Part shown: positions 5,066-61,848 of the stretch, piece by piece | Numbering within the stretch: position 1 is the stretch's first letter | Layout of the letters: each line of letters opens with the position of its first letter | From: an uncultured Blautia sp. | Lineage (GTDB): Bacteria > Bacillota > Clostridia > Lachnospirales > Lachnospiraceae | DNA: 64,000 nt | Direction of reading: 5' to 3' | NCBI GenBank assembly: GCA_946626695.1 | Contig: CAMOUV010000001.1 | Coordinates: 3,339-67,338, forward strand | Program-made: the position numbers and the translations under genes | The notes under the pieces: generated by a model | What the model was told of the DNA's origin: nothing | What the model saw: the letters and a program-made list of their open reading frames with translations, nothing else | Database searches by the model: none

Positions 5066-5092
5066 AAAAAAGACTGCCGCTTTGCGGCAGTC
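5064..5092 (-). terminator. Intrinsic terminator between convergent thiI and the HPr-like gene
   Basis: GACTGCCGC-TTT-GCGGCAGTC hairpin (5072-5092) with an A-run on its left, which is the U-tract on the minus strand. Confidence 0.8.
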
Positions 5093-5129
5093 CGATCCTG
5101 ACGATTGGTTCATGATCCGGGAACCGGTA

Positions 5130-5366
5130 TTACTCCACGATGTATTTGCCGATCACGCTCAGAACTTCTTCAAGAGCGGCACCGTCTGCATGGATGTTCA
5201 GGTCGATGGATTTGGAAAGATCCAGGCTGAAGATACCCATGATCGATTTGGCGTCAATGACATATCTACCGGAAACAAGATCAAAATCGCAGTCAAATCT
5301 GCTGATCTCGTTGACAAAGGCTTTTACTTTATCGATCGAATTGAGAGAGATTTTAATGGTTTTCAT
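5130..5366 (-). CDS. HPr-family protein (short clostridial type, lacks the His15 motif)
   Basis: IDAKSIMGIFSL Ser46-type motif; no GLHARP; RBS GGAGG. Confidence 0.85.
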   Translation of the reverse strand: MKTIKISLNSIDKVKAFVNEISRFDCDFDLVSGRYVIDAKSIMGIFSLDLSKSIDLNIHADGAALEEVLSVIGKYIVE

Positions 5367-9740: not shown

Positions 9741-10079
9741 ATGGACCGGATCGAGATGCTTACGGAGCAGCTTCTGCAGGCGATCCTGGAGAGCGATATC
9801 TATAAGGACTACGTGGAACAGGAAGAAAGACTGGAACATATCCCCGGACTCAAAGACCGGGTGAACCGGTTCCGGGCCGATAATTTCCTGATGCAGCAGG
9901 AGAATCCGTCGGATCTCTATGCGGTCTCGGAGATCATGGAACAGCGGTCCGCCGAGCTTCGGAAGGTTCCGGAGGCAAACGCCTATCTGGAGGCGGAGCT
10001 GGCGGTCAACAAAATGATGCAGAAAATCTGCGGGACCCTGTTTGCGGGCATCCGGTACAGCGTACCGGAGGATGTGTGA
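9741..10079 (+). CDS. YlbF/YmcA (RicAFT-like) family regulator
   Basis: Small helical protein with AYLEAELAVNKMMQ; typical position after rnj. Confidence 0.7.
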   Translation: MDRIEMLTEQLLQAILESDIYKDYVEQEERLEHIPGLKDRVNRFRADNFLMQQENPSDLYAVSEIMEQRSAELRKVPEANAYLEAELAVNKMMQKICGTLFAGIRYSVPEDV

Positions 10080-12399: not shown

Positions 12400-15300
12400 T
12401 TGAAAAAGAGGATCGATGAGCTTTTGAATGGAGAATTTGAATATGAGCCGCCCGTTCTCATGTTTTCCCAGGAAAGCGTGGAGGTGGAGCTTCCGGCCGG
12501 CGAGACAGCCCAGAGAGAGCTGTATATCGGCACGGAACAGAACCGGAAGATCCGCGGGTATGTGACGTCCTCTGACCGGAGACTGGTGCCGGGACTGGAA
12601 ATCTTTTCCGGGACCACCATACGCCTTCCCTTCGGCATCGATGCGGTGGGCCTGCTTCCCGGCGAAGTCCGTGAGGAGTGGCTCTGCTTCACCACGAATG
12701 TGGGCGAGTATAAGATCCCGGTCACGATCCGTACCGGATCGGGGGTCCTGTCCACATCGGAGGGGGAGGTCCGCTCCCTCGATGATTTTGCGAAGATCGC
12801 GGAGGAGGATTTCCGGGAAGCTTATCGAATGTTCACGGATCCGGAGTTTGAGAGACTGTGCGAAAAGCAGTCCGACGGGAGGATCCGTTCCTTGTATGCC
12901 GGTCTGTCCGCGCAGCCGGTCACCTATCAGAACCTGGAGGAATTCCTGATCGCCGCCGGCCGGAAGGAGAAGGTCACGGTGCGACTCCAGGAATACCGGA
13001 GAGAAATTTTCGAGATCACCGAATCCACCCGGGAGTCGGTGCTCCTTACCCGCAGCGGCTGGGGCCATCTGCGGATGGATGTGGTGGTGGAAGGCGGCTT
13101 TATCGAGACGGAAAAGCGTGTGATCACCGATGAAGATTTTATCGGAAGCTCCTACAACCTGGCCTATGTGATCCGGCAGGAAAAGCTGGGAGAGGGCAAT
13201 CAGTACGGAGGGATCCGCATCATCACGCCCTATCAGGAGCTGTTCTTTGAGGTGGTCGCCTCCAGGACCATGCGCTCGGGGGTGCAGATCCATCTGGAGG
13301 AACAGAAATGCCGGCTGAATCTGATGCGGGATTATCTGGATTACCGCTGCCAGACGCTGGACTGTCCCGCCTGGGCGGCGCAGTCGCATTATGAACTGAA
13401 CCGGCTGAAGGATTCGGGCTTTGATTATCCGGAATACCGGATCTATGAGGTTTTTGTCCTCTGGAAGGAGGGCAAAAAGGAAGAGGCAGCGGATCTGCTG
13501 AGAGAGTTTCACAGCCAGTCCTTTATCCGTGACAACCCGGAGATCGCCGGACTGTATCTGTATCTCTGCTCCGAGGCCGGCCTGTACAAGGACAAGGATG
13601 CGGTCCTCCGCAGAATCCAGGCTTTGCGGGCCCGGAACGAAAAAAGCTTTGTCCTGCAGGAGATCCTGCTTCAGGTGGATCCGGAGCTGGTGCGGCTGCC
13701 CTCGAGGGCACTGTACGAGCTGGAGGAGCTTTTTGAGAGAGGCTGCCGGAACCCGGTCCTGTATCTGGAGGCCTGGGTGCGCATCTGCATGGATGAGAGC
13801 CTCCTGCACCGGCTCAGCCGTTTCTGGATCCAGGTATTTCTGTTCGCGGGACGGAAAGGGCTTCTGACCCAGGAGCTTACCAACCGTTTCACCTTCCTGT
13901 CCGGAAACGAAAAAGAATTCCGGGAGAGCCTGTACCGGGCGCTGGTGTACGGGTACGAGGCGTATCCCTCCGACGATTCGCTGGAGGCGATCTGCCAGTA
14001 TATCATGCGCGGAAACCCGCGGAAGAAGGAGTATTTCCGCTGGTTCGAGCTGGCCGTGGAGCGGGACATCCGTCTCACAAGGGTGTTTGAATATTATATG
14101 GAGACCCTGGACATTTCCTATCACCGGGAGCTGCCCAAGTCTCTTCTGATGTATTTCAACTACAACAACAGCAATCTGGGGGATACAAGAAAAGCCTACA
14201 TCTATGCGGATGTGATCGCGAACCGCGATCAGGATCCCCAGACCTACAAAAGCTATCAGGAGACCATCCGTTCCTTTGCCGCCCAGAAGATCCGGGAGGG
14301 CAGGGTCAGCGAGGATTATGCGCTCCTGTATCAGGAATATCTCCATTCACCGGAAAATCAGGAGGAGGCACGGATCCTTTCGGGCATCCTTTTCGTCAAT
14401 CGTCTGTACTGCGACAGCAAGAAGGTCCGCTGTGTGATCGTGCGGCACAGCCAGCTGGTGCGGGAAGAGCTGTATCCCTGTGTCCAGGGCGTTGCGTACC
14501 CGCGGATCTACACGTCGGACGCGGCTGTCCTGTTCCAGGACGACAAGCAGCGCCGTTACAGCGCCACGGTGGATTACAATCTGAAGAAACTGATGGACGA
14601 GCGGGATCTCATCCCGCAGATCCTTGAAAAACGATATACGGAGCCCGGGATCCTTCTGAATTACTGTGAGACCCGGGAGATCACCGAACAGAATCTGGCG
14701 GTTTTCCAGCAGGTGGTCCAGTCCGATTCCTTCACGCCGGAATACCAGAAAGAGATCCGCAGGAGGATCCTTTCCTGGTACCGGGAGAATGTGCGGGGCT
14801 CCGAGCTGGACGGACTTCTGAAAAAGCTGGACTATCGGGAATATGCCCTGGTGGACCGGAAGACGCTTCTGGAGATCCTGATCGAAAGGGGACTGTTCCG
14901 CCAGGCCTACAGGATCGTGGAGGAGTTCGGGGCAGAAGAGGTGAGCCGGCCGGATCTGCTGAAGCTGGTAAGCCGCATGATCATCCGGCGGGATATGCGG
15001 GAGGATGACGAGCTGATCGCGCTTTCTTCCCAGGTGTTCCGGAACGGACTTTATGACGAAATGATCCTCCGTTATCTGATGATGTACCGCAACGGTCCGG
15101 TGGATGAGCTGTTTGCCATCCGCAAAAGCGCCGAGGGCTTTGAACTGGACACCTATTCCTTTGACGAGAAGATCCTGCAGCTTCTGATGCTGACCCAGGA
15201 TTACCGGAAGGAAGGGGAAAAGGTCCTGGAAAGCTATGTCCGTGAGTCCGGCAGGGAGAAAATCATCGGGGCGTATCTGACCCAGCTTTCCTACGGCGCG

Positions 15301-15933
15301 TTCGTGAAGGAGCACGGGATCAGTCCCTTTGTGCGGAGCTGTCTGGAGACGGCCTTCCGGAACGAATGGGAAGTGGATCAGGTCTGCCATCTGGCGCTGT
15401 TCAAATCCCTGGTGCGGGAGAAGGACAGCCGGGGCGATTATAAAGAAATGAAAGAAAAGCTGCTCCGGGAGTGCATGGAAAAAGGAATGGTATTCGGCTT
15501 CTTCCGGAAGCTTCCCCAGGATATCCTGAGCCCCTGGCAGCTGGATGACAAAACCTTTGTGGAATGTCATGCCGGGCCCGATGCCTCGGTGACCCTGTTC
15601 TACCGGCTGGATTCGGGACTGGGGGATGACGGGAATTATGTGTCCCAGCCGCTTGCCCCGGTGTATCAGGGGATTTTTGTGAGAACCTTTACCTTGTTTT
15701 ACGGAGAAACGCTGCGGTATTATTTTGTCATCGAGGAAAACGGGAAGAGCCGTAAGACCTCGGAGCGCGTGCTTACCATGAACCGGGTGGAGGGGAATCC
15801 TTCCTCCCGTTATCAGCTGATCAATCAGCTGCTGTCCTCCCGGAAGCTGAAGAAGGACCGGGAGACGGCTGCGGGCCTGAAACAGTATCTCCGTCAGGAA
15901 CAGTATGTCAATGAAATGTTCAGACTGCAATAA
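12400..15933 (+). CDS. DUF5717-family large cytoplasmic protein (beta-rich N- and C-terminal domains, long helical core)
   Basis: 1177 aa ORF with native codon usage, TTG start after GGGG RBS. MKKRIDELLNGEFEY start and C-terminal FTLFYGETLRYY recalled as DUF5717. Confidence 0.7.
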   Translation: MKKRIDELLNGEFEYEPPVLMFSQESVEVELPAGETAQRELYIGTEQNRKIRGYVTSSDRRLVPGLEIFSGTTIRLPFGIDAVGLLPGEVREEWLCFTTNVGEYKIPVTIRTGSGVLSTSEGEVRSLDDFAKIAEEDFREAYRMFTDPEFERLCEKQSDGRIRSLYAGLSAQPVTYQNLEEFLIAAGRKEKVTVRLQEYRREIFEITESTRESVLLTRSGWGHLRMDVVVEGGFIETEKRVITDEDFIGSSYNLAYVIRQEKLGEGNQYGGIRIITPYQELFFEVVASRTMRSGVQIHLEEQKCRLNLMRDYLDYRCQTLDCPAWAAQSHYELNRLKDSGFDYPEYRIYEVFVLWKEGKKEEAADLLREFHSQSFIRDNPEIAGLYLYLCSEAGLYKDKDAVLRRIQALRARNEKSFVLQEILLQVDPELVRLPSRALYELEELFERGCRNPVLYLEAWVRICMDESLLHRLSRFWIQVFLFAGRKGLLTQELTNRFTFLSGNEKEFRESLYRALVYGYEAYPSDDSLEAICQYIMRGNPRKKEYFRWFELAVERDIRLTRVFEYYMETLDISYHRELPKSLLMYFNYNNSNLGDTRKAYIYADVIANRDQDPQTYKSYQETIRSFAAQKIREGRVSEDYALLYQEYLHSPENQEEARILSGILFVNRLYCDSKKVRCVIVRHSQLVREELYPCVQGVAYPRIYTSDAAVLFQDDKQRRYSATVDYNLKKLMDERDLIPQILEKRYTEPGILLNYCETREITEQNLAVFQQVVQSDSFTPEYQKEIRRRILSWYRENVRGSELDGLLKKLDYREYALVDRKTLLEILIERGLFRQAYRIVEEFGAEEVSRPDLLKLVSRMIIRRDMREDDELIALSSQVFRNGLYDEMILRYLMMYRNGPVDELFAIRKSAEGFELDTYSFDEKILQLLMLTQDYRKEGEKVLESYVRESGREKIIGAYLTQLSYGAFVKEHGISPFVRSCLETAFRNEWEVDQVCHLALFKSLVREKDSRGDYKEMKEKLLRECMEKGMVFGFFRKLPQDILSPWQLDDKTFVECHAGPDASVTLFYRLDSGLGDDGNYVSQPLAPVYQGIFVRTFTLFYGETLRYYFVIEENGKSRKTSERVLTMNRVEGNPSSRYQLINQLLSSRKLKKDRETAAGLKQYLRQEQYVNEMFRLQ

Positions 15934-15944
15934 GGAGCTATGGA

Positions 15945-17210
15945 ATGAATGAGATTCGGGATCTGATCATCGGAATCGATTTTGGAAAAGAAAATACACA
16001 GCTCTGCTACTATGACCGCAAGGCGGATGAGCCCCGCTCGATCTCCATGAAGGTGGGAGCCAATGTCTACGAAGCTCCAACGGCTTTATGCCGGAGAGCC
16101 GGGCAGGCCGAATACTCGGTGGGAATCGAGGCGGAATATTTTTCCCGGGAGAAAAACGGTTATCTGATCGAGAATCTCTACGAGATCACCGGGAAGGAGG
16201 AGCCGGTGCAGGTGCTGGAGGAATCCAGGGAGCCCTGGGAGCTGGCGGCTTCTTTTATCAAAGGCATGCTGCGGTATCTCGGGGTGATGGAAGTGATCCG
16301 GAACACCCGCTGCCTGTGCATCGCCACCCCGTCTCTCACGGATATCCGGGTGAAAAACCTGAAGCGTGCCTGCACATCCCTCGGGATCCCGGAGGACCGT
16401 TTTCTGCTGATGGATTACGGGGAAAGCTTCTTTTATTATGTGATGACGCAGAAAAAAGAGGTGGTGAACCGCAGTGTGGCCTGGTACATTTTTGACGGCA
16501 ATGAGGTCACCTTCCGGAAGCTTTCGGTCAACAACGCCAGAAAGCCCGTCCTGGTACAGCTTGAGGAGCCGGTAACGACGACGCTGCCGGAGACGGCCCG
16601 GGAAAGAGATTCGGCCTTCTGCACGTTTATCCAGGAAACGGTGGGGACGGAGCTGTTCTCCAGCATTCAGATCAGCGGGGAAGGCTTTGACACCGACTGG
16701 GCGAAACAGGCGGTAAAGCTTCTGTGTTTTCAGAAACGGAAGGTATATTATGGAAACAATCTTCATGCGGGAGGAGCCTGCGCGGCGGGAAAGGAACGCA
16801 TGGAGGACCGGAATCTTAAGAATATCCGCTTCTTGAGCCAGTCCATTGTCAGGGAAGACGTGGGGATGGAAATGCTGGTCATGGGGTCTCCGGCCTATGT
16901 GCCGCTGATCACCGGCGGAGAAAACTGGTATGAATGCAGCAGCCGCTGCGAGCTGATCCTCAATAAGACCGAAGACCTGGTGTTTGTGGTTCTGCGGATG
17001 GGCGAGACCGAGAAAAAGCGGGTCGTGATGCATCTTCCCGGACTGCCGGCAAGACCGGACAAGACGACCCGGCTTCTGCTGGAGCTGGCCTATGTTTCGC
17101 CGGACCGCTGCCGCATCACGGTGACGGATCTCGGCTTTGGCGATATGTTCCCCTCCAGCGGAAAGGTCTGGAAGGAGACAGTGAACTGGACAGAGGAGGG
17201 AGTATCATGA
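15945..17210 (+). CDS. DUF5716-family protein; divergent Hsp70/actin-like fold
   Basis: N-terminal IIGIDFG (cf. DnaK IIGIDLG); C-terminal LPGLPARPDKTTRL...VTDLGFG (cf. DnaK SBD-beta). Confidence 0.7.
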   Translation: MNEIRDLIIGIDFGKENTQLCYYDRKADEPRSISMKVGANVYEAPTALCRRAGQAEYSVGIEAEYFSREKNGYLIENLYEITGKEEPVQVLEESREPWELAASFIKGMLRYLGVMEVIRNTRCLCIATPSLTDIRVKNLKRACTSLGIPEDRFLLMDYGESFFYYVMTQKKEVVNRSVAWYIFDGNEVTFRKLSVNNARKPVLVQLEEPVTTTLPETARERDSAFCTFIQETVGTELFSSIQISGEGFDTDWAKQAVKLLCFQKRKVYYGNNLHAGGACAAGKERMEDRNLKNIRFLSQSIVREDVGMEMLVMGSPAYVPLITGGENWYECSSRCELILNKTEDLVFVVLRMGETEKKRVVMHLPGLPARPDKTTRLLLELAYVSPDRCRITVTDLGFGDMFPSSGKVWKETVNWTEEGVS

Positions 17211-25559: not shown

Positions 25560-25593
25560 CAAAATCTCGAAAAACCTCGAAAAAGCTCGAACG
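25560..25593. repeat. Three-unit 10-bp tandem array (A)AAAA[T/C/G]CTCG + AACG, copy 1
   Basis: caaaatctcg aaaaacctcg aaaaagctcg aacg; nearly identical array at 61661-61704. Confidence 0.9.
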
Positions 25594-25606
25594 ATTTTCC
25601 TTCGGA

Positions 25607-25650
25607 TTCGACAGGGTTCGACAAGATTCTGAAAAGAGATCCGTTATAAT
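25607..25650 (+). promoter_or_regulatory. Putative Spo0A-dependent promoter: two perfect 0A boxes over the -35 region plus TATAAT
   Basis: TTCGACA at 25607-25613 and 25617-25623 (reverse complement of TGTCGAA); TATAAT at 25645-25650; no consensus -35. Confidence 0.7.
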
Positions 25651-25718
25651 ACCCCTGCACAACATACAGTAAGCGAAGCGTTTTTCTTCGTTTACGGGAA
25701 AGTGAGGGGGCAGGGCGT

Positions 25719-26336
25719 ATGTACGGCACACAGGCGGAAAAAACGGCCGGTTACAAAGAAGAACAGGATCTGCTGCGGCGGATGCGGAGAGAGAAGGACA
25801 GGAAGGCCCGGGAACGGCTGATCTGCGGATCTCTCTGGATGGTCCGGCATATTGCAGGGCAGTTTCACGTATATGGAACCGCTGAGGATCTGGTTTCCGT
25901 GGGAACACTGGGCCTGATCAAGGCCGTGGATTCCTACGACAGCCGGAAGAAAAACCGGCTTGGCTGTTACGCGGTCCGCTGTATTGCCAACGAGATCCGC
26001 ACCTATCTTCGCAAAGAAGGCGCTCACATGACGGTATCGCTGGAGACATTGCCGGACCAGAATCTGTTGTACAGGGAGGGCTCCATGGAACCGATCGGAA
26101 AAACCTATCCAGAGCCGCAGAAAGCGGCGGAAAAAGCCTGGGAGCTGCAGTGCCTCGCGGCGCTGCTGGAGAAACTGCCGGAGATGGACCGGGAGCTGCT
26201 CCGTCTTCGGTTTCTGGAGGACCGGCCGATGACCCAGAGGGAAACGGCAGAGAAACTCGGAACCAGCCAGTCCTATGTCTCCCGCCGGGAAAAAAAGATC
26301 CTCGCCGCTTTACGGGGCGGACTGGAGGCAGAATGA
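25719..26336 (+). CDS. SigE/SigK-family RNA polymerase sigma factor without pro-sequence (SigE-like, divergent)
   Basis: EDLVSVGTLGLIKAVDSY (region 2.2-2.3), YAVRCIANEI, TQRETAEKLGTSQSYVSRREKKIL (region 4.2, SigE-like SQSY); RBS GAGGGGG. Confidence 0.85.
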   Translation: MYGTQAEKTAGYKEEQDLLRRMRREKDRKARERLICGSLWMVRHIAGQFHVYGTAEDLVSVGTLGLIKAVDSYDSRKKNRLGCYAVRCIANEIRTYLRKEGAHMTVSLETLPDQNLLYREGSMEPIGKTYPEPQKAAEKAWELQCLAALLEKLPEMDRELLRLRFLEDRPMTQRETAEKLGTSQSYVSRREKKILAALRGGLEAE

Positions 26337-26386: not shown

Positions 26387-26415
26387 TTTACCTTTCGGGC
26401 AAAGAGTGTTATGAT
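26387..26415 (+). promoter_or_regulatory. sigma-A promoter of the paaK-ACT operon
   Basis: TTTACC-17 bp-TATGAT with extended TG. Confidence 0.55.
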
Positions 26416-35711: not shown

Positions 35712-35793
35712 AAAAGAGTCACGGGGACAGGTTCCCTGACTCATTGCCGCCGAGTGGCAACGAGTCAGCGGAACCTGTCCCCGTGACTCTTTT
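35712..35793. repeat. REP/REPIN-like element: two inverted copies of a ~27-bp palindromic unit
   Basis: AAAAGAGTCACGGGGACAGGTTCCCTGACTC...GAGTCAGCGGAACCTGTCCCCGTGACTCTTTT; the same unit recurs at 45470-45496. Confidence 0.8.
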
Positions 35794-35797
35794 TTCT

Positions 35798-37237
35798 TTA
35801 CAGTTTACGCCATGTCCTGGGATAGAAGAGCATCAGCAGGGGGAAGATTTCCAGTCTGCCGGCCAGCATATCGAAGGTCAGGACAAGCTTGGGGAGGGAC
35901 GAGAACAGAGAATAATTCTGTGCCGGTCCCACCAGATCAAGGCCGGGGCCGATGTTGTTGAGGGTGGCGGCCACGGCGGAAAAATTGGTGGTATAGTCAA
36001 AGTTGTCCACGCTGATGATCAGGGTGGAGAAGGCGAAGATGACCACATACACGACGATGAAGATGTTCGTGGAACGGACCACCTCGTGGGCCACCGGCTT
36101 TCCGTCGATCTTGATCTTTTTGACCGCATTCGGATGCAGGAACAGAAGAAGCTCCTTTCCGACGGACTTGATCAGGATCATGATCCGGGAGACCTTGATG
36201 CCTCCTCCTGTACTGCCGGCGCAGGCGCCGATGAACATCAGCATCAGAAGGATGGTCTTGGAAAACATGGGCCACTGGTCAAAGTCCACGGTGGAATATC
36301 CCGTGGTGGTGATGATGGAGCCCACCTGGAAGGCGGCATGATGGAAGGCCTGGAACACATTCCCGAACATGTGGGAAATATTGATGGTAATGGTGATGAC
36401 CGCCACCGCGATGATGCCCAGATAGTAGCGGACCTCCTCCGTGTGGAAGGCCTGACCGAACTTTTTCATGATCAGGAAAAAGTAGACGTTGAAATTAACG
36501 CCGAACAGGATCATGAATACGGTGATGATCCCCTGCTGCAGCATGGTATAGTCCCCGCAGCTGGAGTTCAGGACTCCGAAGCCACCGGTTCCTGCCGTAC
36601 CAAAAGAGATACAGAGCGCATCGAAGAGCGGCATCCGGGTCAGAAGCATCAGGGCGATCTGGATCAGGGTCAGACCGATGTAGATGGCATAGAGGATCTT
36701 TGCGGTGGACTGTACCTTCGGAAGCATACGGCTGACCGAAGGGCCCGGGCTCTCTGCCTTCATCAAGGCCATATGATAGCCGCCGGTCAGAGGCAGGATC
36801 GCCAGCACAAAGACCAGCACGCCCATGCCGCCGATCCAGTGCGTGAAGCTGCGCCAGAGCAGCACACATTTGGGAAGGACCTCCACATCCGTCAGGATGC
36901 TGGCTCCCGTGGTGGTAAAACCGGAAACCGTCTCGAAAAGCGCGTTGACCGGATTGGGGATGCTGCCTGTCAGGACAAAGGGCGCGGCGCCTACGATACT
37001 CAGCGTGATCCAGCTCAAGGCAACCGCCACAAAGCTTTCCCTGGCATAAAAGGCCTTTTTCTTCGGCTTGTGCAGGGCAATGGGAATGCCAAAAACCAGA
37101 CAGAACAGGATGACAGCCAGAAAAGAAAAGCCTGCTTTTTCGCCGTAGATCAGGGCCGTAATGGATGGGAGCAGCATCAGCGCGGCTTCCAGATTCAGGA
37201 TCATCCCGACAATGTAGACAATGATCGAATAATTCAT
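35798..37237 (-). CDS. trkH: Trk potassium uptake membrane subunit
   Basis: FETVSGFTTTGAS, WIGGMG, GTAGTGGF, TTTGYST, GSTGGGIKV, NNIGPG, MLAGRLE. Confidence 0.95.
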   Translation of the reverse strand: MNYSIIVYIVGMILNLEAALMLLPSITALIYGEKAGFSFLAVILFCLVFGIPIALHKPKKKAFYARESFVAVALSWITLSIVGAAPFVLTGSIPNPVNALFETVSGFTTTGASILTDVEVLPKCVLLWRSFTHWIGGMGVLVFVLAILPLTGGYHMALMKAESPGPSVSRMLPKVQSTAKILYAIYIGLTLIQIALMLLTRMPLFDALCISFGTAGTGGFGVLNSSCGDYTMLQQGIITVFMILFGVNFNVYFFLIMKKFGQAFHTEEVRYYLGIIAVAVITITINISHMFGNVFQAFHHAAFQVGSIITTTGYSTVDFDQWPMFSKTILLMLMFIGACAGSTGGGIKVSRIMILIKSVGKELLLFLHPNAVKKIKIDGKPVAHEVVRSTNIFIVVYVVIFAFSTLIISVDNFDYTTNFSAVAATLNNIGPGLDLVGPAQNYSLFSSLPKLVLTFDMLAGRLEIFPLLMLFYPRTWRKL

Positions 37238-37246
37238 GCTGTCGGC

Positions 37247-38605
37247 CTACCTTTCCAGAATGTCGGTAATGTCCCGCAGTCCGCGGTTCGTGGTGACAAT
37301 GATGACAGAGTCGTCGATCTGGATCATGTCCTGGCCGCGGGGGATACGGATCTCGCCGCGGCGGTTGATGCAGGCCACCAGCAGGTCCTTTTTGAGGTTC
37401 AGCTTTGCCAGAGGAACGCCCACCACCGGAGAAGACTCACGGATCCGGAACTCCAGCGCTTCCGCCCGGTTGTCCAGAATATGGTACAGTGTCTCCACAT
37501 TGCTTCCGATGCTGTTCTGCATGGCACGTACATACTGCAGAATATAATCGGCGGTGATGTATTTGGGATAGATCACGCTTCCGATATCCAGCTCATCGAT
37601 GACATCATCGTAGGAAAGCCGGTTGACCTTGGCGATCCGTTTGGCGTTGGAATACTTGCGGGCGGACAGGGAAAGGAAAATATTCTCCTCGTCCATATTG
37701 GTGAGGGTGACGACCGCTTCCGCCTGCCGGAGCCCTTCCTCGAGAAGCAGAGAACGGTCGGTGCCGTCCCCGCAGATGATGGTGGCCTCCGGGAGCAGCT
37801 CGCACAGAAGCTCACACCGGTCCTTGTCCTTCTCGATGATCTTGACGGAGATCTTCATTTCCATCAGCATCTGGGCCAGATAATAAGAGATGGTGCCGCC
37901 GCCGATAATCATGGCATCCCGCACCTGCGTGGTCTTCAGACCAATCTTCCGGAAGAAAAGGGCAGCGTTCCGGGGTGTGGTCATCACGGAAATCAGGTCT
38001 CCGTCATGCACCACCGAGTCGCCGTTGGGGATCTCGATGCCGCGGTTGTTCTCTATGGCGCAGAACAGCATGTCAAAATGAAAGCGTTCCGCGATCGTTG
38101 ACAGGGAAAGATCGTTCAGCCCGAATTCGGGTTCGACCTTGAATTTGATCAGCTCCACCTTCCCCCTGGCGAAGGTATCGATCTTCATGGCGGAAGGGAA
38201 ACGGAGAATCCGGGAGATCTCCATGGCAGCGGCATACTCCGGATTGATGAAGGCGGAAAGCCCCAGCCTCTCACGGATAAAACCGATCTCCTTGCTGTAG
38301 ATGGGATTGCGTACCCGGGCGATGGTGTGACATTTGCTGGTCTTCTGTGCGATGAGGCAGCAGAGCAGATTCAGCTCGTCCGAGTTGGTTACCGCGATCA
38401 GGATGTCGGTGGATTCGATACCGGCCTCCATCAGGGTATTGATACTGGCGCCATTGCCGACGATGGCCAGCGCGTCGATATCGTCGCTCAGCTCGTTCAG
38501 CTTGCTTTCCCGGGTATCCACCAGGGTCAGATCTATGTTTTCTTCCTGCAGCTGTTCTGCAAGGGTACGTCCCACTTTGCCGCAGCCGACTATCATTACT
38601 CTCAT
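37247..38605 (-). CDS. trkA: Trk potassium uptake RCK regulatory subunit
   Basis: MRVMIVGCGKVG, VTNSDELN, TIARVRN, second RCK_N IIGGG. Start at 38605 after GAGG. Confidence 0.95.
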   Translation of the reverse strand: MRVMIVGCGKVGRTLAEQLQEENIDLTLVDTRESKLNELSDDIDALAIVGNGASINTLMEAGIESTDILIAVTNSDELNLLCCLIAQKTSKCHTIARVRNPIYSKEIGFIRERLGLSAFINPEYAAAMEISRILRFPSAMKIDTFARGKVELIKFKVEPEFGLNDLSLSTIAERFHFDMLFCAIENNRGIEIPNGDSVVHDGDLISVMTTPRNAALFFRKIGLKTTQVRDAMIIGGGTISYYLAQMLMEMKISVKIIEKDKDRCELLCELLPEATIICGDGTDRSLLLEEGLRQAEAVVTLTNMDEENIFLSLSARKYSNAKRIAKVNRLSYDDVIDELDIGSVIYPKYITADYILQYVRAMQNSIGSNVETLYHILDNRAEALEFRIRESSPVVGVPLAKLNLKKDLLVACINRRGEIRIPRGQDMIQIDDSVIIVTTNRGLRDITDILER

Positions 38606-38740: not shown

Positions 38741-39340
38741 TCAGTACATGTGCGCCGCGAGAATGGCCCGGATGGTGTGATACAGATCCGGCTTGTAGGC
38801 GGAAAGCTCCACCGGCTGCTGGAAAAGAATGCAGCTGTAGCACGCCGAACCCACCAGTTCCAGGATGGAAAAAAGCATCAGCTCCGGATCCCGGTATCGG
38901 ACGCCGGCCTGGCGCAGGATATCGGGGAAGGCATTTCCGTAGGGATCGTCCTCCTCCGAGATCTCGCGGTCCAGGATCCCGCGGAACATCCCCCAGGAAA
39001 GATTCTTGGAGATAAAAATAAGAAGCGGATGATTATGCTCCAGCTCGTTCAGAATATAATCAACGATGAAAAGAAGCTGATCCTCGAAGGAGGTGAGGGA
39101 GGTCCCTGCCAGGGCGAGGCGCGCCTTATGAAACAGTTCTCCGGTTTTCCGGGAAACCAGCTTGTTCCGGATGTCGTACTTATCCTTGAAATAGAGATAA
39201 AAGGTTCCTTTTGCGACACCGGCCTGTTCCACGATGTCTGAGATGGTCGTTTTTGTCAGTCCCTTTGTGGTAAAAAGCTCAAAGGCGGTCTGGTACATGG
39301 CGTCCTTTTTTTGTTTTTTGTTTACTTCCAGTTTTCCCAT
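38741..39340 (-). CDS. TetR/AcrR family transcriptional regulator
   Basis: AFELFTTKGLTKTTISDIVEQAGVAKGTFYLYFKDK HTH. Confidence 0.93.
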   Translation of the reverse strand: MGKLEVNKKQKKDAMYQTAFELFTTKGLTKTTISDIVEQAGVAKGTFYLYFKDKYDIRNKLVSRKTGELFHKARLALAGTSLTSFEDQLLFIVDYILNELEHNHPLLIFISKNLSWGMFRGILDREISEEDDPYGNAFPDILRQAGVRYRDPELMLFSILELVGSACYSCILFQQPVELSAYKPDLYHTIRAILAAHMY

Positions 39341-39415
39341 TTTAAATCACCCCGCAAAAAAACTTCCGGCACGGTCCGACAGCGGGAGACCGGCCTTTTC
39401 TGTACAGTATGAAGC

Positions 39416-39521
39416 AAAAATGACCGTAAGTCAATTATTTTCCTGAAAATAAAGAAAATAGTTGACTAATGGTCATTTTTGGAGTATAACAGGAACGTGA
39501 TAAAAAATGACCGACAGTCAA
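39416..39521. promoter_or_regulatory. Three AAAAATGAC-N5-GTCAA operator sites and the MMPL-operon promoter
   Basis: Sites at 39416-39434, 39462-39480 (inverted) and 39503-39521; TTGACT(39462)-17 bp-TATAAC(39485-39490) overlaps site 2. Confidence 0.8.
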
Positions 39522-39598: not shown

Positions 39599-41731
39599 AT
39601 GATACAGACAGGGAAATGGATTGCAAAACATAAAAAGCTGATCCTCCTGATCTCCGTGCTGCTTCTGATCCCGTCCGCGTTCGGGTATGTATCCACCAGA
39701 GTCAATTATGACCTGCTGAGCTACCTGCCCACATCGCTGGATACGGTGAAGGGCCAGAACATCATGGTGGATGATTTCGGGATGGGAGCTTTTTCCATGA
39801 TCGTTGTTGAGGACATGCCTTTGAAGGATGTCGCCGCTATGAAGGAGGATCTGGAGAAGGTGGATCATGTGAAGAGCGTTCTCTGGTATGACAGCATCAT
39901 GGATCTGTCGGTGCCGGTGGAAATGCTTCCGGAGAGGATCCGGGAGGCGTTCTTCCAGGGAGACGCCACGATGATGATCGCGCTTTTTGATGACTCCACA
40001 TCCTCCGACGCTTCCATGAAAGCCGTGGAGGATCTGCGGAAGATCGTGAAGAAGGACTGTTTTGTGAGCGGCATGACCAGCGTGATCCTGGACGTTCGGG
40101 ATCTTGCCATGCAGGAAATGCCGATCTATGTGGTGATCGCCGCCCTCCTTTCCCTGGTGGTCCTGATGCTGGCCATGGAATCGACGCTGGTGCCTGTATT
40201 GTTCCTCTTAAGCATCGGCTTTGCCGTGGTCTACAACCTGGGCACCAATTTCCTGATGGGACAGATTTCCTATGTGACCCAGGCGCTGGCGGCGGTGCTG
40301 CAGCTGGGTGTGACCATGGATTACTCCATCTTCCTGCTGCACAGCTATCAGCGTTTCAAAAAGGAAATGGAAGGAGACAATGATACGGCCATGGCCTATG
40401 CCATAGCGGCCACCTTCAAATCCGTGGTCGGAAGCTCCGTTACCACCATCGCAGGGTTTGTGGCTCTTTGCTTCATGACCTTCACGCTGGGGCTGGATAT
40501 GGGGATCGTCATGGCCAAGGGTGTCGTGATCGGAGTGATCGTCTGCATCACGGTGCTGCCGGCGATGGTGCTCCTTTTTGACAAGGCGATCGAAAAGACG
40601 ACCCACCGCTCGATCCTTCCTTCCTTTGAAAAAACATCGGCTTTCATCACAAAGCATTCGATCTTCGGACTGGTCCTGTTTGCAGTGCTCTTGTATCCGG
40701 CCGTATACGGCAACAATCATGTGAATGTTTACTACAATATGGATGCCACGCTTCCGAAGGATCTGCCGAGCCAGGTGGCCAACGCAAAGCTGGAAGAGGA
40801 CTTCAACATGAACACCGTCCACATGGTGATGCTGAAAAAAGGAATGTCCTCCAGCGACAAGATTGCCATGAGCGATGAGATCAAAGCGCTGGACGGTGTC
40901 CGCTGGGCACTGGGGGGAAGCACGCTGATCGGCCCGGCCTTCCCGGAATCCATGATCCCGCAGACGCTTCGGGACAAGCTGGAGAGCGACGAGTACGAGA
41001 TGCTTTTTGTCTGCTCGGAGTACCATGTGGCCACGCCGGAGATCAACCGGCAGATCGACCAGCTGAAGGAGATCGTGGAACGGTACAGTCCGTCCTCTCT
41101 GGTGATCGGCGAAGGACCGCTGACCGAGGATCTGATCAAGGTGACGGATACGGACTTCAAAAACGTGAGCGCGGTATCCATCATCGCGATCCTGGTGATC
41201 ATCCTGATTGTGTTCCGTTCGGTGTCCCTGCCGTTCATCCTGGTGGCCGTGATCGAATTTGCCATTTTCATCAACATGGCGGTGCCTTACTACCAGGGCG
41301 TCACGCTTCCCTTTGTGGCGAGCATTATCATCGGAACGGTACAGCTGGGGTCCACCGTTGACTACGCGATCCTGATGACCAGCCGCTTTCAGGCCGAAAG
41401 GTCGGCGGGGAAGAGCAAGAAGGAAGCCATCGCCATCGCCCACAGCGCCAACATGAAATCCATCGTGACAAGCGGTCTGGCTTTCTTTGCGGCGACCTTC
41501 GGCGTAGGTCTGTACTCCGAGGTAGATATGATCAGTGCGATCTGCACGCTGCTGGCCAGAGGCGCTTTGGTCAGCATGGCGGTGGTGCTCCTGGTGCTGC
41601 CGGCCATGTTCATGATCTTTGATCCGCTGATCTGCCATACATCGATGGGCTTTCTGCCCCCGAAGGCAAAGAAAAACAAAAACCAGAACGCAGTATCGGA
41701 CACGGATCTGCGCTCATCACATACCGCGTAA
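39599..41731 (+). CDS. MMPL/RND-family transporter
   Basis: Two repeats of TM + extracytoplasmic domain + 5 TM; QLGVTMDYSIFL and QLGSTVDYAILM motifs. Confidence 0.9.
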   Translation: MIQTGKWIAKHKKLILLISVLLLIPSAFGYVSTRVNYDLLSYLPTSLDTVKGQNIMVDDFGMGAFSMIVVEDMPLKDVAAMKEDLEKVDHVKSVLWYDSIMDLSVPVEMLPERIREAFFQGDATMMIALFDDSTSSDASMKAVEDLRKIVKKDCFVSGMTSVILDVRDLAMQEMPIYVVIAALLSLVVLMLAMESTLVPVLFLLSIGFAVVYNLGTNFLMGQISYVTQALAAVLQLGVTMDYSIFLLHSYQRFKKEMEGDNDTAMAYAIAATFKSVVGSSVTTIAGFVALCFMTFTLGLDMGIVMAKGVVIGVIVCITVLPAMVLLFDKAIEKTTHRSILPSFEKTSAFITKHSIFGLVLFAVLLYPAVYGNNHVNVYYNMDATLPKDLPSQVANAKLEEDFNMNTVHMVMLKKGMSSSDKIAMSDEIKALDGVRWALGGSTLIGPAFPESMIPQTLRDKLESDEYEMLFVCSEYHVATPEINRQIDQLKEIVERYSPSSLVIGEGPLTEDLIKVTDTDFKNVSAVSIIAILVIILIVFRSVSLPFILVAVIEFAIFINMAVPYYQGVTLPFVASIIIGTVQLGSTVDYAILMTSRFQAERSAGKSKKEAIAIAHSANMKSIVTSGLAFFAATFGVGLYSEVDMISAICTLLARGALVSMAVVLLVLPAMFMIFDPLICHTSMGFLPPKAKKNKNQNAVSDTDLRSSHTA

Positions 41732-41789: not shown

Positions 41790-44700
41790 ATGAACAGAAA
41801 CAGGAAAATAGCAAGTGTGACCATGGCAGCAGGAATGGCTGTGGTTCTGGGCAGCAGCCCGGTCCTTGCCGCCGGAGACGAAACGCTTCCGGTGACGAAG
41901 GAAGAGACCGTATACGTCAATGCAGATGCGTCCGGAGAGACCGAACAGATCATCGTTTCCGACTGGCTGAAAAATTCCGGGAATGCCGGAGGCCAGGTGG
42001 AAGATCTGTCAGATCTTTCGGATATTGAAAATGTGAAGGGCGATGAGACCTTTACCCAGGAAGGAAGCAGGCTGATATGGAATACAGACGGGGCCGATAT
42101 CTATTATCAGGGAACCACGGACAAAGAGCTTCCGGTTTCCATGAAGATCACCTATTATCTGGACGGGCAGGAGATCAGCGCGAAGGAGCTGGCAGGAAAG
42201 AGTGGTCATCTTCGCATGGAGGTTTCGTATGAGAACCATACCGGAGTGGAAAAAATGATCGGCGGAGAAAAGACCACGGTGTATTCCCCCTTCCTTCTGG
42301 CCACGGCCACGCTGCTTCCGACAGACAAATTCACCAATGTGGAGGTGACCAACGGGAAGCTGATCTCGGACGGCAGCCGGGATGTGGTGATCGGATTTGC
42401 GATCCCGGGACTTCAGGAGAGCCTCGATCTTCCGGAAGAGCTTACGGATGAGCTCGAGATCCCGGAAGGTTTTTCCATGGAGGCGGATGTGACGGACTGC
42501 GAACTGAATTCCACCTATACCATCGCCCTGACGGACAGCATCAAGGATCTGGACCTGACCGGCATGGACGGGCTGGACAGCCTGAAGGACAAGATGGATC
42601 AGCTGGAAGAGGCTTCGATGAAGCTGGTGGACGGATCCGGTGAACTGTATGACGGCGTGGATACATTATATACGAAATACAAGGATTTCCACGATGGCGT
42701 GAAGGAGCTGATGAACGGCTCTGCCGAGCTGAACAGCGGCGTGGGGACGCTTGCCTCCGGCGCCGGCGATCTGGCGGATGGAGCGGCAGCTCTCCGGGAC
42801 GGCGCAAGGGATCTGAACAGCGGCGTATCCCAGGTGAATTCCGGGGCTGCGGAACTGGACAGCGGTGCGGGAGAGCTGCGGGACGGCGCCCGGGAACTGG
42901 CAACGGGAGCCCTGCAGGTGAACAGCGGAACGACTGCGCTGTATGACGGTGCGGTGCAGCTGCGGGACGGCGCCCGGGAACTGAGTACGGGAGCCGGATC
43001 CCTGAAGAGCGGAGCATCGGAAGTAAACGACGGTGCAGTGAAGCTTCGCGACGGAGCAAAGGAACTGAGCGCCGGCGCCGATACGCTGAAAGATGGTATT
43101 CAGAGTGCGAAGAGCGGGACGGACGAACTGAAAAGCGGCGCAGCCAGCCTGAATACCGGTGCCGGAACCTTGAAAGCCGGTACCCGGAAGCTTTCCGACG
43201 GAGCGAAGGATCTGGCAGGCGGCGCAGGACAGCTGTCCTCAGGCGTAAAGAATTACACGGACGGAGCGGACAGTCTCTCTGCCGGCGTACAGCAATTCGT
43301 AAGCGGCGTACAGGAAGCACTCACCAAGGTTTCTGAGTACGGGAAAGGCGTGAATACGCTGGCAGAAGGCGTAAAGTCCTATGTGGCCGGCAGCAGCCAG
43401 CTGACCGCCGGTGTAACAGAGTATACGACCGGAGCAGCTTCGCTGGCCAACGGAGTCTTGAGCCTGAACGAGAAATCCGGCGCGCTGATCAGCGGCATCA
43501 CGGATCTTTCCGACGGGATCGATGCATATACATCGGGCGTAGAGTCCGTAAAGAAAGGCTTTGATCAGTATTCGCAGGCTGTCGGTACTCTTTCACAGGG
43601 AACGGCGGCCTTGCAGGAAGGGGCAAAGGCTCTTCCGGATGGAATGGCATCTCTTTCGGAAGGAATCACTGCGGCACAGACAGGAGCTGCGGATCTGCAG
43701 ACCGGCAGCGATTCGCTCGCGTCGAACCTCTCCTCCATAGCAGAGCAGCTGCAGACGGCGGCCGGATCGGTTCCTTCCGTGGATCTTTCCGGCATCAGCG
43801 GTGCGAAGGACAACATCGCAGGAGGGCTTACCACCGCGCAGACCGGTGTTCAGTCCGCAGCCGGATCCGCAGCATCCGTACAGGCAGACCTGACACAGGC
43901 AGCTGCCGTTCTCCAGGGAATCGACACGAGCGCACTGTCTCCGGAAGCCCAGACCGCCATTGCCGGTGCCCTCGCCCAGATCGGGGCGGCGGGAACAGAC
44001 CTTGGCGGGGTATCCGCGGGACTTACCAGCGCGGGCGGCGGACTGCAGACAGCCGCAGCCGGAGCCGAAGCGATCGGTACGGCGGCAGCATCGTTGTCAG
44101 GGATCGATGTATCCGGGATCCAGAGCAGTCTGACTGCCGCCGCTTCCGGAATCAGCCAGTGCGCAGACGGAGCCGGCCGGCTCAGTGCAGGGATCACCCA
44201 GCTGTCCGGCGGACTCACCCAGCTGAAGAGCGGCGCCGATGCGGCGAAGCAGGGAGCTTCCGAAGTCGTTGACAATCTGGGCAAGGTTTCGGAAGGGCTG
44301 AAGGAGCTGGCTTCCAACACACAGCTTACCGAAGGACTGGAGGAGCTCTCCTCCAAGGGAACGGAACTCTCTTCCGGTGCACAGCAGCTGAGCGGTGCCG
44401 TTCCGGAACTGAGCACGGGTCTTTCCCAGCTGGCAGCAGGAGCCCGGACCCTGATCTCTTCCGGCCAGACACTGGCGGCAGGGGCAAAATCTCTGCAGGA
44501 GAACGATACTACACTGACATCCGGGGCAAACGAGCTTTCGGAGGCGACCGGTCAGCTTTCCGGCGGCCTTACACAGATCACGGATGCCGCCGGAAAACTC
44601 TCCGACGGCGCAAAGGAGCTCTCGGCAAACAGCGCAGCTTTGAACAGCGGTGCATCTCAGATCGCGGCGGGCTCGACAGCGCTCGCCTCCGGTGCCGCCG

Positions 44701-45446
44701 AATTGGATACCGGAGCCGCTGCTCTTTCCGGCGGCAGCGGGAAACTGTATGAGGGAATCCGCACTCTTTCTTCCGGCGCAGCCAGACTCTATGACGGAGC
44801 GGCAAATCTTGCGACCGGAGCCGGAACCCTGTACAGCGGGACGAGTACTCTTGCGTCAGGAACAAAGCAGCTCTCTGACGGAGCCGCCGAGCTCTCTACA
44901 GGAGCCGGAACCCTGTACAAAGGAACCCGGGATCTTACGTCCGGGACACAGACTCTTTCGAGCGGAACCTCTCAGCTTGCGGATGGCGCAAAGACATTGT
45001 ATGCCGGCACCAGAACACTGAAATCCGGGACGAGTGAGCTGAGCAGCGGCACTTCGAAGCTCGCAGAAGGAAGCAGTACTTTGTACAAAGGAACCCAGGA
45101 TCTGGCAGCCGGTTCCAACAAACTGTACGCCGGAACGGGAACATTACAGGACGGTACGCTCCAGCTGGCGGACGGAAGCCGTGACCTGTTCAAGGGCAGC
45201 CGTCAGGTGTATGACGGGATCGAAGATCTCCGGGACGGCGCTGAGCAGCTCCGGGATGGAGAAGAGAAATTCAACGAGCAAGGCATAGAAAGGCTGAAAG
45301 AGGTGCTCGGAGATGAGTTTGACAAGATCATGGATCGTCTCGCCGCGGTGCAGGATGAGGATGTGACCTACACCTCCTTTACGGAAAAAGCAGAAGGGAT
45401 GGACGGAAGCATCCGCTTCATCATCGAGACCGAGCCGGTACGATAA
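41790..45446 (+). CDS. Secreted X-X-X-Leu-X-X-Gly heptad-repeat protein (YhgE/Pip-N-like partner of MMPL)
   Basis: Signal peptide, TKEETVYV/YYQGT globular N-domain, roughly 880 residues dominated by xxxLxxG heptads, short C-terminal FIIETEPV. Confidence 0.85.
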   Translation: MNRNRKIASVTMAAGMAVVLGSSPVLAAGDETLPVTKEETVYVNADASGETEQIIVSDWLKNSGNAGGQVEDLSDLSDIENVKGDETFTQEGSRLIWNTDGADIYYQGTTDKELPVSMKITYYLDGQEISAKELAGKSGHLRMEVSYENHTGVEKMIGGEKTTVYSPFLLATATLLPTDKFTNVEVTNGKLISDGSRDVVIGFAIPGLQESLDLPEELTDELEIPEGFSMEADVTDCELNSTYTIALTDSIKDLDLTGMDGLDSLKDKMDQLEEASMKLVDGSGELYDGVDTLYTKYKDFHDGVKELMNGSAELNSGVGTLASGAGDLADGAAALRDGARDLNSGVSQVNSGAAELDSGAGELRDGARELATGALQVNSGTTALYDGAVQLRDGARELSTGAGSLKSGASEVNDGAVKLRDGAKELSAGADTLKDGIQSAKSGTDELKSGAASLNTGAGTLKAGTRKLSDGAKDLAGGAGQLSSGVKNYTDGADSLSAGVQQFVSGVQEALTKVSEYGKGVNTLAEGVKSYVAGSSQLTAGVTEYTTGAASLANGVLSLNEKSGALISGITDLSDGIDAYTSGVESVKKGFDQYSQAVGTLSQGTAALQEGAKALPDGMASLSEGITAAQTGAADLQTGSDSLASNLSSIAEQLQTAAGSVPSVDLSGISGAKDNIAGGLTTAQTGVQSAAGSAASVQADLTQAAAVLQGIDTSALSPEAQTAIAGALAQIGAAGTDLGGVSAGLTSAGGGLQTAAAGAEAIGTAAASLSGIDVSGIQSSLTAAASGISQCADGAGRLSAGITQLSGGLTQLKSGADAAKQGASEVVDNLGKVSEGLKELASNTQLTEGLEELSSKGTELSSGAQQLSGAVPELSTGLSQLAAGARTLISSGQTLAAGAKSLQENDTTLTSGANELSEATGQLSGGLTQITDAAGKLSDGAKELSANSAALNSGASQIAAGSTALASGAAELDTGAAALSGGSGKLYEGIRTLSSGAARLYDGAANLATGAGTLYSGTSTLASGTKQLSDGAAELSTGAGTLYKGTRDLTSGTQTLSSGTSQLADGAKTLYAGTRTLKSGTSELSSGTSKLAEGSSTLYKGTQDLAAGSNKLYAGTGTLQDGTLQLADGSRDLFKGSRQVYDGIEDLRDGAEQLRDGEEKFNEQGIERLKEVLGDEFDKIMDRLAAVQDEDVTYTSFTEKAEGMDGSIRFIIETEPVR

Positions 45447-59983: not shown

Positions 59984-59988
59984 TAGAA

Positions 59989-61662: not shown

Positions 61663-61704
61663 AAAGCTCGAAAAACCTCGAAAAATCTCGAAAAAGCTCG
61701 AACG
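61661..61704. repeat. Four-unit 10-bp tandem array AAAAA[G/C/T]CTCG + AACG, copy 2
   Basis: aaaaagctcg aaaaacctcg aaaaatctcg aaaaagctcg aacg; matches 25560-25593. Confidence 0.9.
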
Positions 61705-61740
61705 AAAAAGGGGCCGGAAGGCCTCTTTTTCCTTGCTTTT
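61705..61740 (+). terminator. Probable intrinsic terminator after recN
   Basis: AAAAAGGGGCC-GGAA-GGCCTCTTTTT followed by further T-runs. Confidence 0.6.
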
Positions 61741-61848
61741 TTCGCCGTAAAATGATAAGTATTTGTGTGGGAGGACAATCCGGAAAGCGGAGGGTCCTGC
61801 CGGAAGCGGCCGCTTCGGAAACGAATCGGAAGGAGGGGAGCTTATCCA

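Follow-up and report, generated by a model that had tools for sequence, protein, structure and literature searches.

Upstream of an orphan sigma factor gene in a 64-kb stretch of DNA from an uncultured ruminant-gut genome (contig CAMOUV010000001.1; the whole stretch is referred to here as the window), we found a promoter that is of the spoIIG type by its sequence plan. We assigned it to this type because its geometry and orientation are shared with genuine spoIIGA-sigE promoters from other Clostridia. Two perfect 0A boxes, the recognition sites of Spo0A, precede a sigma-A -10 hexamer, and the gene that follows encodes a SigE/SigK-like sigma factor that lacks a pro-sequence. The same window encodes a Spo0A homolog (61849-62487) with an intact DNA-binding domain and only half of a receiver domain. 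We consider it probable that the promoter is a Spo0A-dependent, sigma-A promoter of the spoIIG type, and that this homolog activates it independently of phosphorylation. The available 64 kb have a guanine-plus-cytosine (GC) content of 55 %, and the samples were gut metagenomes of goats, sheep, and other sources. Elsewhere the window holds housekeeping genes, with no other recognisable sporulation gene.

Two perfect 0A boxes precede an orphan sigma gene

The core of the 0A box is TGTCGAA, in which G2, C4, and G5 are the contacted bases (PMC3485338). Two perfect copies of this core lie on the minus strand upstream of the sigma gene, reading TTCGACA on the plus strand: box 1 at 25607-25613 (about -50 to -44) and box 2 at 25617-25623 (about -40 to -34). 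They are arranged head to tail with a 3-bp spacer, their centres 10 bp apart; two 0A boxes at this 3-bp distance make up a footprinted Spo0A site of 25-30 bp (PMC2731898). Box 2 holds the -35-like hexamer TCGACA (25618-25623), a 5/6 match to TTGACA. A spacer of 21 bp (25624-25644, plus strand) separates it from the -10 hexamer TATAAT (25645-25650, plus strand), which is followed by the discriminator and predicted transcription start ACCCCTGCA (25651-25659, plus strand), with the start expected at ~25657-25659 from the position of the -10. The 5'-untranslated region (5'-UTR; 25660-25718, plus strand) carries the ribosome-binding site GAGGGGG (25704-25710).

These positions agree in every detail with an earlier, sequence-only reading of this DNA, which had noted TTCGACA at 25607 and 25617, 10 bp apart, followed by TATAAT at 25645. 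That reading had also seen no consensus -35, and a consensus promoter scan confirms this for the usual spacing: it found no TTGACA-like hexamer 16-18 bp from TATAAT.

To place the boxes in their statistical context, we counted the 7-mer over the 64-kb window. Single TTCGACA/TGTCGAA 7-mers are not enriched (6 found vs 8.05 expected). The perfect tandem pair occurs once, with ~3.4e-4 such pairs expected per window from base composition. As the remaining four perfect 0A boxes all lie within coding sequence, the tandem pair holds the sole perfect boxes across the ~8.3 kb of intergenic DNA in the window. A scan of genome contigs for CTCGAAAAANCTCGAAAAA returned matches that, among those listed, were mostly chance ones, spread over all phyla.

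Two further candidate sites around the core promoter were rejected. A SigE/SigK-type -10, CATACAGT, lies in the 5'-UTR at 25663-25670 and would suggest autoregulation; however, it is polymorphic in the population, where most metagenome copies read CATGCAGT, and it is absent in the orthologs, so it is probably a chance match. A CodY-box-like sequence, AAGATTCTGAAAAGA at 25623-25637, fits at 11/15 positions in the window and at fewer in the orthologs, as judged by eye. The 5'-UTR also differs in length between lineages: relative to the orthologous loci L001 and L152, the window lineage has a 32-nt insertion at 25660-25700, which contains a small hairpin (GCGAAG-N7-CTTCGT) with no T-run after it.

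The promoter shares its geometry with genuine spoIIGA-sigE promoters

For reference, eight genuine spoIIGA-sigE loci, independent of one another, were retrieved from other Clostridia. Such promoters are activated by Spo0A. Five of the eight match the window in the orientation of a 0A box and place it at a distance of exactly 21 bp from a downstream TAnnnT -10. The box is perfect in three of them, reading ATTCGTTCAAGTTCGACA-N21-TTTAAT in L164 (where the box is TTCGACA) and TTCGACA-N21-TATAAT in both L166 and L176; the other two read GGCGACA-N21-TATAAT (L169) and TTCGAGC-N21-TATACT (L175, Ruminococcus sp. YE71). The window and its orthologs L001 and L152 read TTCGACA-N3-TTCGACA-N21-TATAAT or TACAAT.

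This spacing is unusual in background sequence. Upstream of spoIIGA, ~1.9 kb of DNA contained 5 occurrences of a relaxed box-N21-(-10) pattern, compared with 6 in ~135 kb of background sequence taken from both strands, which corresponds to a ~60-fold enrichment of the geometry. In the histogram of distances from box to -10, the peak is at 21 (6 cases), and other lengths occur as single cases. The analogy to spoIIG that the sequence-only reading had drawn is thus borne out by the geometry and orientation shared with 5/8 genuine promoters.

The likeness extends to the whole plan of the promoter. The spoIIG promoters of B. subtilis and of L164, L166, L169, L175, and L176, as well as the promoter in the window, have a sigma-A -10 but lack a working -35 at the usual distance, carry a box in the TTCGACA orientation over a displaced -35-like hexamer 21 bp from the -10, and have a SigE-like sigma gene downstream. 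The plan also agrees with that of the spoIIG and spoIIE promoters of B. subtilis in the spacing, as 0A boxes there overlap a -35-like element 21-22 bp from the -10. There are also differences. The sampled genuine promoters have one good box and a degenerate upstream partner, whereas the window has two perfect boxes. In addition, the window has a phased A-tract/TCGA array upstream, and its sigma gene, which lacks the pro-sequence, stands without spoIIGA in the locus aroD-sigma-paaK.

The boxes are invariant across diverged lineages

We aligned the upstream regions of three lineages: the window, L001 (the locus of the homolog P0002), and L152, which came from a metagenome scan. All three have the aroD-sigma-paaK synteny, and the L001 and L152 loci have diverged from the window to 54-60 % protein identity. 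Both boxes are nonetheless fully invariant (7/7 each), as are the upstream array (25/25) and positions 25651-25659 (9/9). The -10 is invariant at 5/6 positions, reading TACAAT in the orthologs, and the spacer between box 2 and the -10 is invariant in length and at 14/21 positions, including conserved ATTC-GAA and GATCCG (25638-25643). The sequences around these elements have diverged: 6/16 positions are invariant in 25591-25606, 14/59 in the 5'-UTR, where only the ribosome-binding site is conserved, and 18/42 in the first 42 bp of the coding sequence.

Near the boxes, substitutions fall only outside the two 7-mers, and the interval from the array to the -10 contains zero indels in all three lineages. 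The linker between array and boxes (25596-25606, plus strand) varies in sequence, but its length is fixed, so that the TCGA cores stay 21 bp apart, in helical phase. Degenerate boxes beside a retained gene, which the sequence-only reading had named as evidence against itself, were found in none of the three lineages; the boxes are 14/14 invariant.

The downstream gene encodes a lone SigE/SigK-like sigma factor

The gene behind the promoter (25719-26336, plus strand) encodes a sigma factor of 205 aa with regions 2 and 4. Its neighbours are aroD and a paaK-like gene, and there is no spoIIGA (Peptidase_U4) gene beside it; what the promoter drives is a lone 205-aa sigma rather than a spoIIGA-sigE operon. 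The protein scores below the cutoffs of the SigE profiles (NF006158 and TIGR02835; 121.8 vs a cutoff of 339 and 112.2 vs 348.6), and its score of 114.2 bits against SigK is nearly equal to its SigE score. Its alignment to the SigE profile starts at position 44, which, in comparison with P0012, P0019, and P0042, means that the whole pro-sequence is missing. P0042 was also considered as a distant ortholog of the orphan sigma and rejected, as it is a true sigE beside spoIIGA.

Close homologs among 5.8 billion proteins form one family, consisting of P0001 (near identical) and P0002 (54 %), and the rest are <=46 % identical. Ranked by similarity, the ten closest database relatives comprise nine assigned to SigE and one assigned to SigK, all at <=46 % identity. 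A SigE origin is therefore modestly favoured by the similarity searches. The name sigE, which the sequence-only reading had given to this gene, stands in part: the protein is modestly closer to SigE, but it is SigE/SigK-like and below the SigE cutoffs, and the label is an inference.

We then considered the ratio of nonsynonymous to synonymous substitution rates (dN/dS). It is ~0.23 for the sigma gene (window vs L001, with dS saturated) and ~0.11 for the spo0A-like gene (vs a 70 % ortholog). Among near-identical metagenome copies of the sigma gene, 10-11 of 11-12 differences are synonymous, and between L001 and L152, regions 2 and 4 differ by 10 synonymous and 2 non-synonymous changes. We read these values as purifying selection on the two genes.

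The window encodes a Spo0A homolog with half a receiver

The Spo0A homolog (61849-62487, plus strand; 212 aa, TTG start) consists of a half receiver and an intact Spo0A_C DNA-binding domain. Spo0A_C is its sole Pfam domain (1.6e-39), with no Response_reg match. The C-domain aligns without gaps to the structures 1FC3 and 1LQ1 (E ~1e-40), with an identical recognition helix, SRVERAIRHAI, and its AlphaFold model superimposes on both with template modelling (TM) scores of 0.88-0.94 and a root-mean-square deviation of 1.1-1.7 A. The model of the N-terminus shows a confident beta1-alpha1-beta2-alpha2-beta3 half receiver, with a predicted local distance difference test (pLDDT) of about 80, and a disordered linker behind it. 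Full-length Spo0A proteins have ~60 aa more, which make up the remainder of the receiver; in addition, the acidic pocket of the homolog reads SE for DD, and a His occupies the position of the phospho-acceptor Asp. The pseudo-receiver that the sequence-only reading had attributed to this protein is thus confirmed as half a receiver with Asp replaced by His. For these comparisons, the B. subtilis Spo0A in alignment A2 served as a guide only; the conclusions come from database Spo0A proteins and the PDB alignments.

The protein scores 167.2 bits against the TIGR02875 equivalog, below the cutoff of 200. Its gene sits in the orthologous spo0A slot, nusB-xseAB-ispA-dxs-tlyA-nadK-argR-recN-[gene]-glgA-recA. 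It belongs to a family of receiver-truncated Spo0A proteins of 212-226 aa (P0121-P0126 and P0130). The distant members P0125, P0126, and P0130 keep the DD pocket and the phospho-acceptor Asp, whereas the window's sub-lineage has lost both and has H, R, or S at the Asp position. The truncation therefore came before the loss of the catalytic residues.

The isolated DNA-binding domain of Spo0A binds its legitimate targets without phosphorylation (PMC3485338). Within the truncated family, a 48 %-identical relative (L131) carries AGTCGAT-N3-TGTCGAA at 9885-9901, ~100 bp upstream of its own spo0A-like gene, followed by TATAAT at 9964-9969. Autoregulation of that gene is possible, and the position of these boxes before a spo0A-like gene fits with continued use of 0A boxes by truncated Spo0A proteins. 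The spo0A-like gene of the window has a putative promoter of its own, TTGCTT-N17-TAAGTA (61733-61761, plus strand), of which both hexamers and the spacing are kept in L130. A good 0A box is missing from this promoter; its only resemblance to one, TTCGCCG at 61741-61747, is not shared by L130. A hairpin, GGGGCC-GGAA-GGCCTC, with a T-run (61710-61730, plus strand; read by eye and kept in L130) is likely the recN terminator.

The surroundings of the slot bear on the state of sporulation. The gene spoIVB is absent from its place between recN and spo0A, both in the window (59914-62487) and in the truncated-Spo0A relatives L131 and L132, and there is no spoIIIA operon upstream of nusB. The absence of spoIVB and spoIIIA from these places suggests that sporulation has been dismantled in this lineage.

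A phased array precedes both genes

Upstream of the boxes lies a tandem array phased at 10 bp, with the units CTCGAAAAAC, CTCGAAAAAG, and CTCGAACGAT (25566-25595, plus strand; about -91 to -62), each combining an A5 tract with a TCGA core. A second array of the form (CTCGAAAAAN)n, with 4 units, is located at 61667-61706 (plus strand), between the recN stop codon and the terminator hairpin and ~30 bp upstream of the putative spo0A-like promoter. In the window, (CTCGAAAAAN)n occurs only before the sigma gene (3 units) and the spo0A-like gene (4 units), and there are no phased A-tract arrays elsewhere (~0.01 expected). The array before the spo0A-like gene is partly conserved in L130; the array before the sigma gene, as described above, is invariant in three lineages. 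The sequence-only reading made no mention of either.

A strict 3-unit search of metagenome contigs returned, for this lineage, only the sigma loci (L152 and L153) and the spo0A-like locus (L142). The array was also seen in an unrelated high-GC Clostridiales contig (L031), which has CTCGAAAAAGCTCGAAAAACCTCGGTAAAAAG at 5314-5345 on the minus strand, just upstream of TTGAAA-N17-TAAATT. The gene that follows (4481-5230, minus strand) lies outside the recN locus and encodes a divergent regulator with a receiver and a Spo0A_C-family domain, which brings to three the cases in which the array precedes a Spo0A-family or sporulation regulator gene. Two-unit CTCGAAAAA repeats abut near-consensus TTGACA...TAnnAT promoters in L014, L016, L032, L041, L057, L062, and L128 (Oscillospiraceae and other Clostridia). 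In L062, the two units are at 343-362 on the minus strand, and the promoter is ~230 bp upstream of a 16S rRNA gene (from 112, minus strand). That the repeat abuts consensus promoters, including one for rRNA, is the behaviour expected of an upstream promoter (UP) or curved-DNA element.

The array in the window resembles UP elements and phased A-tract DNA in its A5 tracts phased at 10 bp and in the identical repeats that abut promoters elsewhere. It differs in its position, which is beyond the 0A boxes at about -62 to -91 and not at the UP-element position of -40 to -60, the position that the same repeat fills in L016, L062, and other loci. On the minus strand, the array unit reads TTTTTCGAG and keeps C4 and G5 of TTTGTCGAA, and the contacted G2 is absent. 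Judged by these features, the array could enhance the promoter as a UP-like A-tract or curved-DNA element, serve as several weak, auxiliary 0A boxes, or be the shared operator of another factor.

Proposed mechanism and points against it

The mechanism that we consider probable would proceed as follows. Two Spo0A-like DNA-binding domains would bind the tandem boxes head to tail, at about -50 to -34. The sigma-A RNA polymerase alone would be inefficient at this promoter, with its -35-like TCGACA displaced to 21 bp from the -10, and the proximal bound Spo0A would supply the missing contact, leading to initiation near 25657, as at spoIIG. The product would be a pro-less, SigE-like sigma that needs no processing by SpoIIGA. 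As the half receiver has no phospho-acceptor, the Spo0A homolog could not be switched by phosphorylation. Three checkpoints are gone: the phospho-acceptor of the regulator, the weak boxes, which are of consensus strength here, and the pro-sequence of the sigma. Neither a phosphorelay threshold nor SpoIIGA processing can therefore act at this locus, and how much sigma is made would depend on how abundant the regulator is. The loss of receiver-mediated dimerisation may be offset by the consensus strength of the boxes. The scheme starts from what the analysis establishes, namely the sequence, its conservation, the geometry shared with spoIIGA promoters, the intact DNA-binding domain, and the purifying selection on both genes; from there we infer the binding itself, activation rather than repression, the start site, the independence of phosphorylation, and the physiological role.

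Several points weigh against this mechanism. The truncated receiver has no Spo0A~P dimerisation surface, so that any cooperative binding is hypothetical. A full-length or second Spo0A, a true spoIIGA-sigE operon, or even a complete set of sporulation genes may lie outside the 64-kb window. A scan found no terminator between aroD and the sigma gene, and read-through could contribute to its expression. In L152, the sigma gene has an in-frame TAG at codon 148 (~2237-2239; GAG in L001) that splits region 2 from region 4 and stems from misassembly or from recent inactivation of the gene in this strain. Public metatranscriptomes contain no contig over 25336-26400; in four metatranscriptomes, coverage of the neighbouring genes is sparse, and the spo0A-like gene is uncovered too. 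In runs X3, X5, and X9, coverage is restricted to the paaK-like gene and begins at 26446, and X14 and X15, from the sample richest in the organism, have nothing over the sigma or spo0A-like genes. Finally, 0A boxes over a core promoter can repress, as they do at the A2c promoters of phi29 and Nf (PMC2731898).

A wider reading, which we hold only tentatively, is that the sigma gene and the spo0A-like gene are a two-gene remnant, maintained under selection and rewired to run without its usual checkpoints, in a lineage of ruminant-gut Clostridia that no longer sporulates. In this remnant, a phosphorylation-blind Spo0A would act through the consensus-strength tandem boxes to turn on an unprocessed, SigE-derived sigma, with both genes marked by the array and together running a new programme other than sporulation. 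The array would then be a shared cis-element, providing, for example, weak auxiliary Spo0A sites for feedback and co-regulation.

Alternative explanations

The first alternative is repression. A Spo0A-like protein bound at -50 to -34 would keep the polymerase off the promoter or stop read-through from aroD, leaving the sigma gene on only when the Spo0A-like protein is low. The 3-bp-spaced boxes of the phage A2c promoters are a precedent, and the missing terminator after aroD and the lack of sigma RNA in the sparse metatranscriptomes fit as well. However, a usable -35 at 16-18 bp is missing, as is typical where a promoter requires an activator, and the geometry is identical to that of genuine spoIIGA promoters, which are known to be activated by Spo0A. 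We therefore judge repression unlikely.

The sigma gene could instead be expressed mainly by read-through from aroD, or the array alone, as a UP element or curved DNA, could drive the promoter without an activator, with the boxes in a minor role. The first version draws on the same missing terminator, and the second on the CTCGAAAAA repeats that abut consensus promoters in other Clostridia, including the one ~230 bp before the 16S rRNA gene of L062. Against both stand the boxes, which are as invariant as the array and which occupy the UP-element position, ~40 bp downstream of the end of the array. This possibility seems rather unlikely to us.

It is also conceivable that promoter and sigma gene are fossils, remnants of a decaying sporulation pathway that are conserved merely for lack of time. 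Such decay would be in line with the loss of spoIVB, spoIIGA, and the pro-sequence, with the truncated receiver, with the nonsense codon in L152, and with the absence of RNA from the sparse metatranscriptomes. Against it, the lineages share only 54 % protein identity and have reached saturation of dS, whereas the boxes remain 14/14 invariant beside diverged non-coding DNA. The low dN/dS of both genes, the almost exclusively synonymous variants in the population, and the changes between L001 and L152 in regions 2 and 4 likewise speak for selection, and we give the fossil explanation little credence.

Slightly less credence still is due to the idea that the direct repeat serves a different regulator, for example an OmpR/PhoB-type response regulator, with the match to the 0A box being coincidental or inherited and re-used. 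Direct repeats of 10-11 bp are generic sites for response regulators, and the flanking array, which has the same period, is poor as a 0A box, lacking the G2 contact. But both 7-mers are exact 0A consensus sequences at the position and in the orientation seen in spoIIGA promoters, and the recognition helix of the Spo0A encoded in this genome is unchanged.

Last, although the boxes form a 10-bp tandem repeat that replication slippage could make and the single 7-mer is not enriched in the window, we exclude chance or neutral local duplication of a 10-mer with hardly any reservation because of the ~3.4e-4 pairs expected per window, the conservation in diverged lineages with substitutions only outside the 7-mers, and the position, identical to that in real spoIIGA promoters.

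Other features of the window

The paaK-like gene downstream of the sigma gene has a promoter of its own, TTTACC-N17-TATGAT with a TG extension (26387-26415), and the metatranscriptome contigs of two runs both start at 26446. This start, together with the promoter, indicates that the paaK-like gene is transcribed separately from the sigma gene.

One relaxed box-N21-(-10) match elsewhere in the window, at 39375, was judged to be due to chance, as the intergenic region between a divergent regulator and an MMPL gene has its own TTGACT-N17-TATAAC promoter. The sequence there is a weak, tandem box-like TCCGGCA-N3-TCCGACA-N21-TACAGT (39365-39408), located between a minus-strand open reading frame (ORF; 38741-39340) and the MMPL transporter gene (39599-41731). 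The adjacent 39410-39500 region contains, besides the TTGACT-N17-TATAAC promoter, repeated AATGACC/GGTCATT palindromes. By its sequence, the 39365-39500 region looks less like a Spo0A target than like the control region of an efflux gene pair under a repressor.

Two large genes stand next to each other at 12400-17210, encoding a DUF5717 (1177 aa) and a DUF5716 (421 aa) protein; a TPR protein gene comes after them. For two long ORFs, at 35744-38101 (785 aa) and 41790-45446 (1218 aa), Pfam gave no significant domain; the longer one has just weak matches of the coiled-coil type.

Significance and comparison with known systems

In many gut Firmicutes, spo0A has outlived sporulation itself, and for one lineage this locus offers a concrete answer to what the retained gene may do. 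It names a candidate direct target, the orphan sigma, together with a two-box operator and a natural, non-phosphorylatable variant of Spo0A. If the proposed mechanism is true, a developmental cascade can be reduced to a pair of regulator and sigma and repurposed. Apart from this locus, the box-N21-(-10) rule of clostridial spoIIGA promoters is a practical signature to predict Spo0A-activated promoters in uncultured Clostridia.

Tandem boxes of the kind described here are known from abrB (PMC3485338 and general knowledge) and from the phi29 and Nf A2c promoters, which share with the window two head-to-tail 0A boxes and a 3-bp spacer. Those sites repress, whereas the position of the boxes relative to the -10 in the window matches activated, spoIIG-type promoters.

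Deletion of the receiver, as in sad67-type mutants, makes Spo0A constitutively active. The homolog in the window resembles such forms, including the isolated DNA-binding domain, in that no intact inhibitory receiver restrains its effector domain. Whereas those forms are mutants or were constructed in the laboratory, the truncation in the window is natural, conserved in its lineage (P0121-P0126 and P0130), and accompanied by a confidently folded half receiver; if the mechanism holds, the locus would be a natural analogue of the constitutively active constructs.

Galperin et al. (bioRxiv 10.1101/2022.02.25.481979) reported that spo0A is kept in 32/42 non-spore-forming Clostridia, and the window resembles these organisms in that spo0A persists after the loss of other sporulation genes. 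Their study describes neither a receiver-truncated Spo0A nor a retained Spo0A-box promoter on a stand-alone SigE-like sigma, and our literature search found no reports of a receiver-truncated Spo0A or of a retained link to an orphan sigma. While the retention of spo0A in non-spore-formers is already known, the new part would be the combination predicted here, a spoIIG-type promoter on an orphan, pro-less, SigE-like sigma gene together with a phosphorylation-blind Spo0A.

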